From assembly GCF_003334815.1 (NCBI RefSeq), contig NZ_QOWO01000005.1: a stretch of 64,000 nucleotides of DNA; one strand, written 5' to 3'. This DNA is from Escherichia coli. GTDB taxonomy: Bacteria; Pseudomonadota; Gammaproteobacteria; Enterobacterales; Enterobacteriaceae. Positions 36,630 to 53,958 of this stretch are shown in pieces (position 1 is the first letter of the stretch; the number at the start of each line of letters is the position of its first letter). The translations under genes were made by a program, and so were the position numbers. The notes under the pieces were generated by a model, which saw nothing but the letters and a program-made list of their open reading frames with translations, had not been told where the DNA came from and made no database searches.

Positions 36630-37913
36630 TCAACGTTTGTAATCGATGGCTTCTGGCTGCTCCAGATATACGGTGGTTTGTGCCGGTTGTGTGCTGGCAA
36701 TCACCTTGCCGCCACGTACCGAATAACGTACCGGAACCTGACGGCGCAGCGCATCAAACCCATTTTCAGCCGGCAGGATAATCAGGTTGGCGCTGTTTCC
36801 GGCGGCAATGCCGTAATCCTGCAAATTCAACGTCCTTGCGCTGTGGTGGGTGATTAAATTCAGGCCATCGTTAATCTGCCCGTAGCCCATCAACTGGCAA
36901 ACATGCAGCCCCATATGCAGCACTTGCAGCATATTCGCCGTTCCCAGCGGATACCACGGATCGAAGACATCATCGTGACCAAAGCAGACGTTAATGCCGG
37001 ACTCCAGCATCTCTTTAACGCGCGTGATGCCGCGACGTTTTGGATACGTATCGAAACGTCCTTGCAGATGAATATTGACCAGCGGGTTGGCGACAAAGTT
37101 AATACCGGACATTTTCAGCAAGCGGAACAGGCGTGAGGTATACGCCCCGTTATAGGAGTGCATTGCCGTGGTGTGGCTGGCGGTGACTCGCGCGCCCATG
37201 CCTTCATGGTGCGCCAGGGCAGCAACGGTTTCGACAAAGCGCGACTGCTCGTCATCGATCTCATCACAGTGAACGTCGATGAGACGGTCGTATTTTTGCG
37301 CCAGGGCGAAGGTTTTATGCAGCGACTCCACGCCGTATTCACGGGTAAATTCAAAATGCGGAATCGCCCCCACTACATCTGCCCCTAAGCGTAACGCCTC
37401 TTCCAGCAACGCTTCACCGTTGGGATACGACAAAATCCCTTCCTGAGGGAAGGCGACGATTTGCAGATCAATCCACGGCGCGACTTCCTGCTTCACTTCC
37501 AGCATTGCTTTCAGCGCAGTTAGCGTTGCATCCGAAACATCGACATGGGTACGCACATGCTGAATGCCGTTGGCAATCTGCCATTTCAGCGTTTGCCATG
37601 CGCGTTGTTTCACATCGTCATGGGTTAATAACGCTTTGCGCTCGGCCCAGCGTTCAATGCCTTCAAACAGCGTGCCGGACTGATTCCAGTTCGGTTGTCC
37701 GGCGGTTTGCGTGGTGTCCAGGTGAATATGTGGCTCCACAAACGGCGGTATAACTAAACCTTGTTCGGCATCCAGGCTGTTTTCAGTTATGGGCATCACG
37801 CCGGATTGCGCATCAATGGCGCTGATTTTTCCGTCCTGCAGATGAATCTGCCACAGCCCCTCTTCGCCTGGTAACCGGGCGTTAATAATTGTTTGTAAAG
37901 CGTTATTCGACAC
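36630..37913 (-). CDS. codA: Cytosine deaminase (amidohydrolase superfamily)
   Basis: GTG start at 37913 ([16 protein letters not shown]) gives 427 aa; metal-binding HIHLD motif. Confidence 0.95.
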
Positions 37914-51483: not shown

Positions 51484-52866
51484 TCAACCTGCCACACTCC
51501 CCCACACCAGTTGCCCTTTATGGAACGTTGCGGTTCTCGGCGAGATACGCGCCACCGCCTCGGCGGAACAGGAGGCGTCCACCAGCACAAAGCTGGCGTC
51601 ATCCTGCGCTTTTGGCCATACACGCTCGCCTTTTTCATTCAGCGGCAATACATCGCCAGTGGCTAAAAACAGCGAGCGGGAGAGGTTCTGTTCGTTAGGA
51701 CGAATATAGAGCTGCGCGTACAGATTGGCTTTTTCCAGCATGTCGCCCAGACCATAAGGCGACCAGTGGTCGATAACGCTGTCAGTGCCAGTCATCACTT
51801 TTACGCCTTTGTCGTGCAACTGTTTGAGCGGCATATGCAGCGTGCCAATCGGCACCGTCGAGGCGATAGAAATTTGTTGCACCACCATCCGGTTCGCCAG
51901 TTCATCTACCTGTTGCTCGTTGAGCGTTGCCAGCGCAAAGGCGTGACTGATGGTCAGCTTGCCCTTCAGCTGTGGCGTTTTCTCTACCGTTTCAACCATA
52001 TAATTGATGGCTGCCACGCCTGCCGGAGTGGTTTCGTGCAGGTGAATATCGACGCCTTTGTCGTAGTCCAGCGCAATCTGGAACATGGTGTCGAGGGATT
52101 TTTCCATCGCGCCATCAACACTGGTCGGGTCCAGGCCGCCGACGTAATGCGCCCCCGCCTGCATCGCTTCACGCATTAAAGGTTCAGATTTCGACAGCAG
52201 CAAACCGTGCTGCGGGAAGGCGACGATTTCACACTCAAAGCCCGCCTGACGTCGCGCCAGCACCGCCTGCAAATTTTGCAGATTTTTCAGGCCGGAAACC
52301 GGTTCGATATTGCAGTGGCTGCGGGCAATGGTGGTGCCTTTCGACTGCAATAAATCAATCAGTTTTTCTGCCCGCTCCTGAGTGTACGGTTGCAGTTCCG
52401 GCAGCATTTTCTGCTCGAGTTTGATCATGTCCTGGATGGTGGTGCCTGCCGGACGATTGAGCGAGCGCCACGGCCCGCCGTAAAAGGTTTTGTCGAGATG
52501 AATATGCATGTCGCGGGTGGTGGGCAGCATCAGCTTACCGCCAGCGTCATAGTGCGGCAGCGTGGCGTCCGGATGCAGCTTGTTCTCGCGCAGGGCGACA
52601 ATTTTGCCGTCCTGAATCTCCACGGTCTGGCGCGCCGTGCGGGTCTGCACCGCCACGCCATTTTCGTAGTCAAAACCGGTTTCCAGCAGCACGTTATCGA
52701 GATAGTAATGCGGGTCAGTGATTTTCATGGTGTTGTTCGCTTCGCAGTTTAGGGTGCCAGCTACCGCCGCATGGGCGAGCGGCACAGAGGTACCAAACAG
52801 CGCGGCGGCGGTGACCATCTTACCGCTCTGGCTCAGAAATTCACGGCGGCTATTGCTTTCTTTCAT
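51484..52866 (-). CDS. yahJ: Amidohydrolase-superfamily deaminase-like protein with twin-arginine signal peptide
   Basis: 460 aa; N-terminus SRREFLSQSGKMVTAAALFGTSVPLAHA (Tat motif); HIHLD metal-binding motif shared with CodA. Confidence 0.85.
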   Translation of the reverse strand: MKESNSRREFLSQSGKMVTAAALFGTSVPLAHAAVAGTLNCEANNTMKITDPHYYLDNVLLETGFDYENGVAVQTRTARQTVEIQDGKIVALRENKLHPDATLPHYDAGGKLMLPTTRDMHIHLDKTFYGGPWRSLNRPAGTTIQDMIKLEQKMLPELQPYTQERAEKLIDLLQSKGTTIARSHCNIEPVSGLKNLQNLQAVLARRQAGFECEIVAFPQHGLLLSKSEPLMREAMQAGAHYVGGLDPTSVDGAMEKSLDTMFQIALDYDKGVDIHLHETTPAGVAAINYMVETVEKTPQLKGKLTISHAFALATLNEQQVDELANRMVVQQISIASTVPIGTLHMPLKQLHDKGVKVMTGTDSVIDHWSPYGLGDMLEKANLYAQLYIRPNEQNLSRSLFLATGDVLPLNEKGERVWPKAQDDASFVLVDASCSAEAVARISPRTATFHKGQLVWGSVAG

Positions 52867-52875
52867 CTTACGTCC

Positions 52876-53826
52876 TTACGTTTTAATAATATGAGTGCCC
52901 GTTTCGCCGCGCAGCGCCGCAGGCAGGCATTCCGGCGTGGTGATAATCACTTCTTTGCCGCCTTGTTCTAAAAATGTCAGGCTGGCGATGATTTTTGGCA
53001 ACATGCTGCCGGGCGGGAAATGCCCTTCCTGCATATAGCGGGTCATGGTGGCAATATCCACCCGATCGAGCGCCTGCTGCTGCGGTTTGCCAAAGTGAAT
53101 ACACACTTTTTCGACGCCAGTGGTGATCACAAGAATGTCGGCGTGAATTTCACGGGCCAGCAGCGCGGTAGAGAGATCTTTGTCGATAACCGCGTCCACG
53201 CTTTGGTAATCTCCCGCGTCAGTACGCACTACCGGAATTCCACCGCCGCCCGCGCCAATTACGACAAAACCTTGTTGGATCAGCGCTTTAATGGCAGGTG
53301 CTTCGACAATACGTTTCGGTTCCGGCGAGGCGACCACGCGGCGATAGCCCCGCCCGGCATCTTCAACAAAACACCAGTCAGGGTTTGCCTTTTGTAATTC
53401 GTCACGCTGGCTGTCACTAAAGAATGCGCCGATGGGCTTGGTGGGATGGGCAAAACCTGGATCGTTTTTATCCACTTCCACCTGAGTCACCACGGTGACG
53501 GCTTTCTTCTCGCCGTGACGCGCCAGCCGGTTATTCAGCGCCTGTTGGATCAGATAGCCGATGCCGCCCTGCGTATCTGCCACACAGTTCGCCAGCGGCG
53601 TTAAGGGCAGCCCTTCGCGCTTGTGGGCAATCTCCGCACGGCGTAAATCCAGCCCGACCTGCGGCCCGTTGCCGTGGGTCAGCACAATGTCGTAATCGGA
53701 AGCCAGCATTTCCAGCACCGTATCGGCGACGGCTTTCACCGCCTCCGCCTGATGCTCAATCGACTGGCTGGCGTTATCTTTGATAATGCTGTTGCCACCA
53801 ATGGCAACGACCACAAGCTCTTTCAT
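52876..53826 (-). CDS. yahI: Carbamate kinase-like protein
   Basis: 316 aa; N-terminal VVVAIGGNSI motif typical of carbamate kinases. Confidence 0.88.
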   Translation of the reverse strand: MKELVVVAIGGNSIIKDNASQSIEHQAEAVKAVADTVLEMLASDYDIVLTHGNGPQVGLDLRRAEIAHKREGLPLTPLANCVADTQGGIGYLIQQALNNRLARHGEKKAVTVVTQVEVDKNDPGFAHPTKPIGAFFSDSQRDELQKANPDWCFVEDAGRGYRRVVASPEPKRIVEAPAIKALIQQGFVVIGAGGGGIPVVRTDAGDYQSVDAVIDKDLSTALLAREIHADILVITTGVEKVCIHFGKPQQQALDRVDIATMTRYMQEGHFPPGSMLPKIIASLTFLEQGGKEVIITTPECLPAALRGETGTHIIKT

Positions 53827-53873: not shown

Positions 53874-53958
53874 AATGCCTGATGCGCTACGCTTATCAGG
53901 CCTACAGATTCTTGCGCCATTCGTAGGCCGGATAAGGCGTTCACGCCGCATCCGGCAT
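53874..53958. repeat. BIME/REP palindromes between yahG and yahI
   Basis: gcctgatgcgctacgcttatcaggcctacag...gtaggccggataaggcgttcacgccgcatccggcatgaac. Confidence 0.8.

Follow-up and report, generated by a model that had tools for sequence, protein, structure and literature searches.

The yahJ gene of this Escherichia coli very probably encodes the precursor of an amidohydrolase of the CodA/AtzC type, which carries a conserved 33-residue twin-arginine (Tat) signal peptide and is predicted to be periplasmic after export. The gene lies in the 64,000-nucleotide stretch of DNA analysed here (the window), whose sequence resembles that of E. coli K-12 and in which yahJ and the preceding gene yahI are each 100% identical to those of strain MG1655. 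The initial annotation had located the signal at positions 52756-52866, which are codons 1-37 of YahJ on the minus strand (the strand had been left out), and the N-terminus quoted there, MKESNSRREFLSQSGKMVTAAALFGTSVPLAHAAVAG, matches the reverse-complement translation of 51484-52866 exactly. The Tat motif, hydrophobic stretch and AxA site that it described are all found within these 37 residues, as SRREFL, an uncharged stretch of 17 residues and AHA. The gene and the parts of its N-terminal region are located as follows.

51484-52866, minus strand: yahJ coding sequence, encoding the 460-residue precursor of a Tat-signal-bearing amidohydrolase (open reading frame and translation; the annotated yahJ of MG1655)
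52768-52866, minus strand: predicted Tat signal peptide, residues 1-33 (MKESNSRREFLSQSGKMVTAAALFGTSVPLAHA), with length, uncharged stretch and hydrophobicity within the range of 18 known E. coli Tat signals
52834-52851, minus strand: twin-arginine motif S6-R7-R8-E9-F10-L11 (sequence; conservation in 80 distinct N-termini)
52777-52818, minus strand: h-region, residues 17-30 (MVTAAALFGTSVPL; sequence)
52768-52776, minus strand: predicted signal peptidase I site A31-H32-A33, with cleavage after A33 (sequence and conservation)
52717-52767, minus strand: variable linker of the mature protein, residues 34-50, preceding the folded domain, which begins near H53

The twin-arginine motif of YahJ is more than a chance occurrence. 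Residues S6-R7-R8-E9-F10-L11-S12 agree with the consensus S/T-R-R-x-F-L-K at six of seven positions, the window has 460 ATG-started candidate N-termini, for which only some 0.04 occurrences of the strict pattern [ST]RR.F[LIVM] are expected, and among these candidates YahJ alone combines the strict motif with 13 or more uncharged residues in a row. Measured against the 18 known E. coli Tat signals, that of YahJ is typical in its length (33 residues versus a mean of 32.7), in its uncharged stretch (17 residues versus a mean of 18.2) and in the mean Kyte-Doolittle value of that stretch (1.31 versus 1.22 +/- 0.23); Sec signals are typically shorter than Tat signals. Conservation among 80 distinct orthologue N-termini is concentrated at the motif (R7 1.00, R8 0.99, F10 1.00, L11 0.93) and at the cleavage site (A33 0.97, A31 0.78), and averages 0.36 over linker residues 34-50 versus 0.79 over residues 51-130. 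Of 120 close homologues, 119 retain RR, and RRxF[LI] can be read at nearly all of 83 species loci, which extend to 61% identity and include Rhizobiales. AlphaFold2 confidence (pLDDT) averages 40-51 across residues 1-40 and stays low up to about residue 47, and the signal peptide therefore lies outside the fold. A lipoprotein was ruled out: the residues before C41 (T-L-N) form no lipobox, and C41 itself is conserved in only 46%.

Those established Tat substrates of E. coli that carry no complex redox cofactor (such as AmiA, AmiC, SufI, CueO and EfeB) resemble YahJ in the S/T-R-R-x-F-L motif, in an h-region of moderate hydrophobicity and in an A-x-A site, and the AHA ending is common to YahJ, DmsA, YedY and EfeB. 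YahJ differs from the established substrates in that its passenger is an enzyme of the amidohydrolase superfamily and in that it has no basic residue in the c-region. YahJ would fold in the cytoplasm, where it would probably acquire its Fe or Zn ion; TatBC would recognise S-R-R-E-F-L, the folded protein would cross the inner membrane, and signal peptidase I would cleave after A31-H32-A33, leaving a periplasmic enzyme on a flexible 17-residue linker.

The c-region bears on a different route, in which the signal would be dual-pathway or mainly Sec-dependent and YahJ would arrive unfolded in the periplasm and take up its metal there; we consider this unlikely. Sec avoidance typically, though not obligatorily, involves a basic c-region residue or a positively charged early mature region, and YahJ has neither: the signal lacks Lys and Arg over its last eight positions, the net charge of the mature start AVAGTLNCEANN is -1, and the early mature protein is acidic or neutral. 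YahJ is reportedly among the E. coli Tat signal peptides tested by reporter fusions by Tullman-Ercek and colleagues (J Biol Chem, 2007), and many of these signals are said to send reporters via Sec as well if the mature N-terminus lacks a positive charge. Against a Sec route stand the near-invariance of RR and F10 in more than 80 species, a constraint that would be unexpected of a Sec signal, and an h-region hydrophobicity typical of Tat signals.

The Tat signal of YahJ as such is known biology, and there is nothing new in it. YahJ figures in published compilations of Tat substrates of E. coli, and has done so since genome-wide predictions were made in the early 2000s; its assignment to the amidohydrolase family is standard annotation. 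The reality of a Tat-type signal, the kinship of YahJ with CodA and the signal-less state of CodA are either published already or evident from the sequence itself. Two listings of YahJ as a predicted Tat substrate both derive from TATFIND/TatP predictions (PMC3027627; PMC7549933), and the competitive index of an ExPEC delta-yahJ mutant was 0.70 (p = 0.022; PMC7549933). The accessible full-text literature yielded no experiment that directly demonstrates Tat dependence of full-length YahJ.

The nature of the enzyme can be approached through its active site, for which CodA, encoded in the same window, offers a first comparison.

36630-37913, minus strand: codA, cytosine deaminase with a GTG start, the cytoplasmic relative named in the initial annotation
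52489-52506, minus strand: H121-I-H123-L-D125-K126, HxH metal ligands and AtzC-type Lys (alignments)
52210-52212, minus strand: Q219, putatively substrate-binding by equivalence to CodA Gln156 and AtzC Gln160 (invariant in a 61-sequence alignment; roles from PMC4577212)
52033-52044, minus strand: H275-L-H277-E278, comprising the third metal ligand, an AtzC-like His and a CodA-like catalytic Glu (alignments; equivalences from PMC4577212)
51943-51945, minus strand: H308, equivalent of the catalytic His246 of CodA and of His249 of AtzC (alignments)
51781-51783, minus strand: D362, the metal-ligand Asp equivalent to CodA Asp313 and AtzC Asp303 (invariant in the 61-sequence alignment)

YahJ matches the Pfam domains Amidohydro_3/Amidohydro_1 and the NCBIfam model PRK06846 (712.7 bits versus a cut-off of 447), which begins at residue 49 and so leaves the signal peptide uncovered. 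Its AlphaFold2 model (pLDDT 91, pTM 0.87, residues 1-47 disordered) has the (beta/alpha)8 barrel with a small beta domain built from N- and C-terminal segments, and Foldseek matched it to 6nbo, AtzC and CodA with TM scores of 0.89, 0.85 and 0.75. Across 61 family members, CodA included, H121, H123 and D125 are invariant, as are H275 and D362, and H308 is at least 90% conserved; the H249A mutant of AtzC had undetectable activity (PMC4577212). By these alignments the CodA/AtzC catalytic set (H121, H123, Q219, H275, E278, H308 and D362) is complete in YahJ, which is predicted to be a mononuclear-metal amidohydrolase of superfamily subtype III with hydrolase activity.

The metal-site motif that YahJ was said to share with CodA is present in both proteins, as DMHIHLDKT (YahJ residues 119-127) and PHIHLDTT, and the two align with 26% identity over 323 residues (E = 9e-22). 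CodA likewise proved to be signal-less, with its HxH at residue 62 versus residue 121 in YahJ and no N-terminal extension. The description of CodA as 'paralogue-like' holds insofar as the two are related, but the wording is loose, since YahJ is nearer to AtzC-type enzymes: its PDB sequence matches are 6nbo at E = 1.9e-43, AtzC at about 5e-30 and CodA at about 1e-16. YahJ and CodA belong to one superfamily subtype and agree in every metal ligand as well as in the catalytic Glu, His and Gln; codA, unlike yahJ, accompanies the gene for the CodB permease and encodes no signal peptide, and the CodA specificity residues Thr66 and Asp314 are replaced by Lys126 and Ser363. YahJ was accordingly rejected as a cytosine deaminase orthologue, its scores being 67-101 bits versus NCBIfam cut-offs of 403-483. 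The best matches in sequence and fold are AtzC, an N-isopropylammelide isopropylaminohydrolase (PDB 2QT3, 4CQB), and the AtzC-like Burkholderia protein 6NBO, with which YahJ shares HxH, the His and Asp ligands, the catalytic His, Gln, a stacking Trp and the equivalents of Lys65 (K126, aligned with Thr66 in CodA) and His219 (H277). Four of the five AtzC pocket residues (Lys65, Gln160, His219, Asn304 and Trp309) are matched in YahJ (K126, Q219, H277 and W368); identity is only 22-28%. YahJ differs from these enzymes in having Ser363 in place of Asn304, in retaining the CodA-type Glu E278, in its genomic context and in its N-terminal extension, which has no counterpart in the solved chains (390-423 residues, beginning near HxH). 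YahJ would most likely remove an amino or alkylamino group from a planar N-heterocycle by hydrolysis.

Within the family, the Tat signal is, by sequence comparison, an add-on confined to a minority, most relatives being signal-less proteins of about 400 residues. A Tat-like N-terminus occurs in 7 of 86 full-length representatives of 50%-identity clusters (about 8%), and in these the HxH lies about 50 residues later (median position 118 versus 64).

Beyond export, the function of YahJ may be sought among its neighbours, which in the window comprise the following.

52867-52878, minus strand: junction of the yahI stop and the yahJ ribosome-binding site (...ACG TAA GGA CGT AAG ATG)
52876-53826, minus strand: yahI, carbamate kinase family (NCBIfam PRK12352, 648.9 bits; 38% identical to AllK/YbcF)
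53970-55389, minus strand: yahG, DUF1116/AllG family, split into two overlapping open reading frames by a 1-bp insertion at 54874, where T7 stands in place of T6, either as a true frameshift or as a homopolymer sequencing error
55389-56936, minus strand: yahF, FdrA/AllF family (NCBIfam PRK06091, 487.7 bits; 38% identical to AllF)
56926-57789, minus strand: yahE, DUF2877/AllH family (annotation; 25% identical to AllH/YlbF, E = 1e-9)
57829-58434, minus strand: yahD, ankyrin-repeat protein without a signal peptide, the first gene of the cluster (annotation, profile match)
59281-60213, plus strand: yahB, LysR-type regulator, divergently transcribed and travelling with the cluster (annotation, locus comparison)

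The Shine-Dalgarno sequence of yahJ (AAGGA) overlaps the yahI stop codon, with an in-frame spacer of 9 nt, no terminator-like or promoter-like site was seen on the minus strand at the yahI-yahJ junction, and yahJ is translationally coupled to yahI. Initiation at the internal M47, which would give a cytoplasmic isoform, was ruled out: the amino acid sequence of residues 1-33 is conserved, and the junction of Shine-Dalgarno sequence and ATG suits the upstream start. YahI has no signal peptide and is therefore cytoplasmic by inference. The Pfam families AllF_N, AllG and AllH match orthologues of the yah cluster proteins, intact MG1655 YahG is 45% identical to AllG/YlbE, and homologues of AllF, AllG, AllH and carbamate kinase are encoded together beside yahJ, their activity as a module being predicted. 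The allH, allF, allG and allK genes of the anaerobic allantoin branch of E. coli are paralogues of yahE, yahF, yahG and yahI (25-45% identity); the all cluster, in contrast to the yah cluster, has no Tat-exported amidohydrolase at its end and has a different gene order, and yahG is frameshifted in the window.

Among 72 species loci, 39 have yahJ directly after yahI, in the arrangement yahD-(E)-F-G-(P)-I-J; in 7 yahD is the sole cluster gene kept with yahJ, and in 26, Xenorhabdus (77-83% identity) among them, yahJ stands alone. No other neighbour stays with yahJ as often as yahD, which is present in all 39 full-cluster loci and in the 7 yahD-yahJ loci. A role for YahD as a YahJ-specific partner (chaperone or hitchhiker) is nonetheless unsupported, as yahD is also the first gene of an island copy that has no yahJ, and yahD is missing from 26 loci with yahJ. 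Thirty-two of the 39 full clusters encode, between yahG and yahI, a highly conserved membrane protein of 515 residues (82-88% identity), which the sources name a xanthine/AGZA permease. In its model, this protein adopts the 7+7 inverted-repeat transporter fold seen in UraA, SVCT1, SLC26 and AzgA, and its placement is by fold comparison, the Pfam, NCBIfam and PDB sequence searches having given no match. The complete DEFGPIJ operon is present in Citrobacter werkmanii or C. braakii and in Enterobacter cloacae. The transporter is absent from E. coli K-12 and from the window, where the REP-filled yahH occupies its place and tblastn found no remnant of its gene. As a separate observation, some yahJ copies of E. 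coli are plasmid-borne, and at least some of these, with 100% identical yahJ, lie on large plasmids of K-12 or cell-culture strains; we take these plasmids to be F-prime plasmids with the lac region.

The loss of the permease, the REP-filled yahH, the frameshifted yahG and the shortened yahJ alleles of some E. coli strains (414-434 residues) give the cluster an eroded look, and it is counted among the uncharacterised y-ome genes (PMC11551758). It could be argued from this that the N-terminus of YahJ is no working export signal in E. coli, the gene being cryptic or decaying or the segment an uncleaved membrane anchor, so that active YahJ would not be soluble in the periplasm. This we regard as very improbable, given that 5032 of 5426 complete E. 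coli genomes carry 80% or more of the length of yahJ, that the signal and its A-x-A site are conserved in permease-less lineages as well, and that C41 is not preceded by a lipobox.

The initial annotation had joined the periplasmic deaminase and the cytoplasmic carbamate kinase in a two-compartment pathway, an idea that can plausibly be inferred. Spelled out, periplasmic YahJ would act on an external N-heterocycle, the product would be imported, and a ureido intermediate would be split with phosphate by the AllFGH-like YahEFG into carbamoyl phosphate, from which YahI would yield ATP, CO2 and NH3; we hold this reading to be possible, short of probable. It is consistent with the yahI-yahJ junction and gene order, with the transporter-fold protein of the full clusters, and with the identities of YahF, YahG, YahE and YahI to AllF, AllG, AllH and AllK (38, 45, 25 and 38%), AllFGH being an oxamic transcarbamylase (PMC11326118). 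It is weakened by the missing transporter in K-12 and the window, by the frameshift in yahG, by the 7 species loci that keep yahD alone with yahJ and the 26 in which yahJ is solitary, and by the E. coli island copy, which has yahD-E-F-G-permease-I without yahJ, although IS remnants follow.

Alternatively, YahJ could be independent of YahEFGI, with yahB (LysR), yahD and yahJ forming a self-contained periplasmic deaminase module for the detoxification or scavenging of a compound, into which the carbamoyltransferase/kinase cassette was inserted between yahD and yahJ in some lineages; this, too, we rate as conceivable rather than likely. In the Class B loci of Pragia, Erwinia and Cedecea, a LysR gene, yahD and yahJ occur without yahEFGI, and yahD and yahJ overlap by 8 nt in Erwinia; the same two genes form the two ends of the larger cluster. 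The solitary yahJ loci fit as well, and in a Serratia clade at 62% identity the neighbours of yahJ are an isochorismatase-family hydrolase and an AraC/FtrA-type regulator. The independence of YahJ is opposed by its tight coupling to yahI in 39 of 72 loci and by the permease-yahI-yahJ order, which is conserved over several orders of Gammaproteobacteria; together these are hard to explain without a shared function.

More tentatively still, YahJ may be the periplasmic entry enzyme of an uncharacterised catabolic route for an N-heterocycle or ureide, encoded by an ancestral operon yahD-(E)-F-G-permease-I-J of which the K-12 cluster would be a decayed remnant that has lost its transporter. Besides the 7+7 inverted-repeat transporter, which matches no Pfam family, this operon would encode a carbamoyltransferase like AllFGH and a carbamate kinase that yields ATP. 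For the function of these y-ome genes of E. coli, a concrete starting point is offered by the Tat add-on found in roughly 8% of family clusters, the AtzC-like active site and the transporter that is present in most full clusters and lost in K-12. The comparative picture suggests that Citrobacter or Enterobacter would be better suited than K-12 to functional tests.

The stretch at 52756-52866 corresponds to codons 1-37 of a minus-strand open reading frame (ORF), whose translation gives a 460-aa protein beginning MKESNSRREFLSQSGKMVTAAALFGTSVPLAHAAVAG, the same sequence as quoted in the initial annotation. The yahJ-yahI region is 100% identical to that of E. coli K-12 MG1655, and the ORF, annotated as 'amidohydrolase family protein', is therefore yahJ. 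Of 5426 complete E. coli genomes, ~5030 contain the region. The two amidohydrolase genes compared here are:

51484-52866, minus strand: yahJ, Tat-signal amidohydrolase gene
36630-37913, minus strand: codA, cytosine deaminase gene, GTG start

Among the window's 460 candidate N-termini beginning at ATG, ~0.04 occurrences of the strict motif [ST]RR.F[LIVM] were expected by chance, and YahJ was the sole candidate combining it with an uncharged run of 13 residues or more. Set against the 18 E. coli Tat signal peptides that PMC7549933 prints, the signal of YahJ is mid-range: it is 33 residues long (mean of the set, 32.7), with an uncharged stretch of 17 residues (mean 18.2) and a mean hydrophobicity of 1.31 (1.22 +/- 0.23), and its AHA ending is shared with DmsA, YedY and EfeB. 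Among 80 distinct orthologue N-termini, conservation is 1.00 at R7, 0.99 at R8, 1.00 at F10, 0.93 at L11 and 0.97 at A33 (position -1), then averages 0.36 over the following 17 residues and returns to 0.97-1.00 from H53. The RR pair is kept in 119 of 120 close homologues, and RRxF[LI] in nearly all of 83 species loci, Rhizobiales included, at identities down to 61%. In the AlphaFold2 model (pLDDT 91, pTM 0.87), the chain is disordered up to about residue 50 and confidently placed thereafter. Together, the rarity of the motif, the likeness to Tat signals, the conservation pattern and the modelled disorder give the N-terminus the classic marks of what would be a cleavable signal, a linker and then a folded domain. 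The Tat motif claimed in the initial annotation is thus confirmed, and is solid by statistics and by evolution.

The core of this finding, a predicted Tat signal on YahJ, is already known. Following Dilks et al. 2003, PMC3027627 includes the gene (b0324 yahJ, 'putative deaminase') in its list of predicted Tat substrates of E. coli, and the same 33-residue signal was predicted with TatP in a study in which an ExPEC delta-yahJ mutant showed a mild competitive defect (competitive index 0.70, p = 0.022; PMC7549933). For the wider family, 1.84 billion cluster representatives were searched and only 167 clusters were found at E <= 1e-30; a convincing RR or RK signal occurs in just 7 of the 86 full-length representatives. 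In these seven the HxH lies ~50 residues later (median position 118 vs. 64), and the remaining representatives begin directly at the YxLxNVRLExGF strand, so the export signal is an add-on of a minority clade that is fixed in the YahJ clade. When Tullman-Ercek and colleagues surveyed the Tat signal peptides of E. coli with reporter fusions in 2007, YahJ was reportedly among those tested. A separate clade of Tat-signal YahJ relatives, at 62% identity, occurs in Serratia marcescens (locus L064, 9932-12943) and related loci. There, genes for a LysR protein and a CynX-family transporter lie 5' of the yahJ relative, and on its 3' side are genes for an isochorismatase-family hydrolase, which weakly matches nicotinamidase, BiuH and RutB models, and for an AraC/FtrA-type regulator. 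These loci contain no yah genes.

As for the enzyme itself, the HIHLD site said to be common to the two proteins is present in both, the PHIHLDTT of CodA standing where YahJ has MHIHLDKT, and their alignment spans 323 residues with 26% identity (E = 9e-22). YahJ matches Pfam Amidohydro_3 and Amidohydro_1, and scores 712.7 bits (cut-off 447) against NCBIfam PRK06846, a model that begins at residue 49. A cytosine deaminase assignment was rejected, the score falling far under the NCBIfam cut-offs for that activity. The closest solved proteins by sequence are the AtzC-like Burkholderia structure 6nbo (E = 1.9e-43), the N-isopropylammelide isopropylaminohydrolase AtzC (~5e-30) and then CodA (~1e-16), and Foldseek with the YahJ model ranks them identically (TM 0.89, 0.85 and 0.75). 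Across 61 family members, CodA among them, H121, H123, Q219, H275 and D362 are invariant, and H308, K126, H277 and W368 are conserved in at least 90%. When mapped to AtzC and CodA numbering (PMC4577212), Lys65 and His219 of AtzC are kept as K126 and H277, and Glu217 of CodA as E278, whereas Ser occupies the position of AtzC Asn304 and CodA Asp314, such that the pocket exactly matches neither enzyme. By these residues, the predicted pocket of YahJ is of the kind in which a planar N-heterocycle would be bound beneath a lid formed by Trp.

The neighbours of yahJ are yahD (ankyrin repeats, no signal peptide), yahE, yahF, yahG and yahI. YahF, YahG, YahE and YahI are 38%, 45%, 25% and 38% identical to the allantoin-branch proteins AllF, AllG, AllH and AllK, respectively, of which AllFGH is a three-gene oxamic transcarbamylase that takes oxalurate to carbamoyl phosphate (PMC11326118). 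By this resemblance, the cytoplasmic Yah proteins plausibly split some ureido compound with phosphate and harvest ATP. YahF is 40 residues shorter than AllF, and YahG residues 12-53 match the C-terminal AllF segment 513-554 (29% identity, E = 4e-4; YahG at locus L001 12249-13667, AllF at locus L085 7235-8902), which suggests that a small segment may have moved between subunits of the two paralogous systems, YahF/YahG and AllF/AllG. At the minus-strand yahI/yahJ junction, ACG TAA GGA CGT AAG ATG, 9 nt separate the yahI stop from the yahJ start, which is in the same frame (52867-52878). Since the Shine-Dalgarno of yahJ overlaps the yahI stop and no terminator-like site was found between the genes, yahJ is predicted to be coupled to yahI. 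Eighty species loci and three more were fetched, and architecture was counted in those whose upstream flank reached 8 kb or more.

Gene architecture in 72 yahJ loci (P, 515-aa transporter-fold protein gene)
yahD-E-F-G-P-I-J: 18/72
yahD-F-G-P-I-J (without yahE): 14/72
yahD-E-F-G-I-J with yahC (E. coli type): 7/72
yahD-J only: 7/72
yahJ alone: 26/72

In some species lacking yahEFGI, yahD (window 57829-58434) lies directly upstream of yahJ (loci L003, L004, L043, L044 and L048), and in Erwinia overlaps it by 8 nt. The gene yahC (window 58692-59189, DUF1097 membrane protein) and P never share a locus (L005-L084), P being absent from 7/7 yahC loci and yahC from every P locus.

A pathway linking periplasmic YahJ, a transporter and cytoplasmic YahEFG/YahI predicts a transporter gene between the cytoplasmic-enzyme genes and the periplasmic-enzyme gene, and P, which sits between yahG and yahI in most non-E. 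coli clusters, fits (L002 7300-8847, and the corresponding place in some 35 further loci, L008 7461-8984 among them). It encodes a polytopic membrane protein, 82-88% identical across loci and genera, that is called a xanthine/AGZA permease in sources; Pfam, NCBIfam and PDB sequence searches gave no match. Its homologues, among the matches listed, include proteins at 64-72% identity in Brevibacillus, Paenibacillus and Bacillus, assigned by sources to Firmicutes. The model (pLDDT 82.5) resembles the 7+7 inverted-repeat transporters SVCT1, UraA, SLC26 and AZG (AzgA) at TM ~0.5, and P looks like an uncurated transporter family on this structural prediction. However, E. coli K-12 and the window lack P, with no remnant in the window by tblastn, and at least a third of species have yahJ but not the cassette. 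We therefore rate the linked pathway about equal to the alternative that YahJ works independently of the YahEFGI cassette, each having somewhat less than an even chance. Of the earlier interpretation, the predicted export and the homology hold. The two-compartment pathway is a plausible, unproven idea, and the case for it is weaker in E. coli K-12 in particular.

Where other species carry P, E. coli K-12 and the window have a REP-filled yahH, described as 'filled with REP23 sites' (PMC11551758). The window has one REP-containing unit of ~84-93 bp in this yahI-yahG interval (53874-53957); MG1655 has three tandem copies, with 'yahH' annotated inside the repeat. The yah region otherwise differs from MG1655 by a handful of SNPs and a 1-bp insertion at 54874 (seven T vs. 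six), which splits yahG (53970-55389, minus strand; DUF1116/AllG family) into two ORFs, 195 and 290 aa long, that overlap. Over this stretch, the best match among the 5426 complete E. coli genomes (99.9%) is also one base shorter, so the insertion is either a frameshift particular to this strain or a sequencing error in the homopolymer. YahI-YahJ fusion ORFs of 677-780 aa in a few assemblies (proteins P0003-P0005 and P0008) would place the Tat signal inside the polypeptide, and probably reflect an error or mutation at the stop codon. Shortened yahJ alleles of 414-434 aa at 89-93% identity in several E. coli strains (proteins P0009-P0035) retain a complete signal peptide and may have arisen by truncation or internal deletion. 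A second, diverged cluster copy (L086, E. coli GCA_002918075.1, contig MKWX01000034.1, 4107-14393) carries yahB, yahD, E, F, G, the transporter and yahI, 53-93% identical to the K-12 cluster, without yahJ, adjoining the aerobactin iuc genes and with transposase remnants at its end.

For the biology of the cluster, a tentative and rather unlikely reading is that YahJ would front an uncharacterised N-heterocycle/ureide catabolic operon that has decayed in E. coli and is still whole in Citrobacter, Enterobacter and Providencia.
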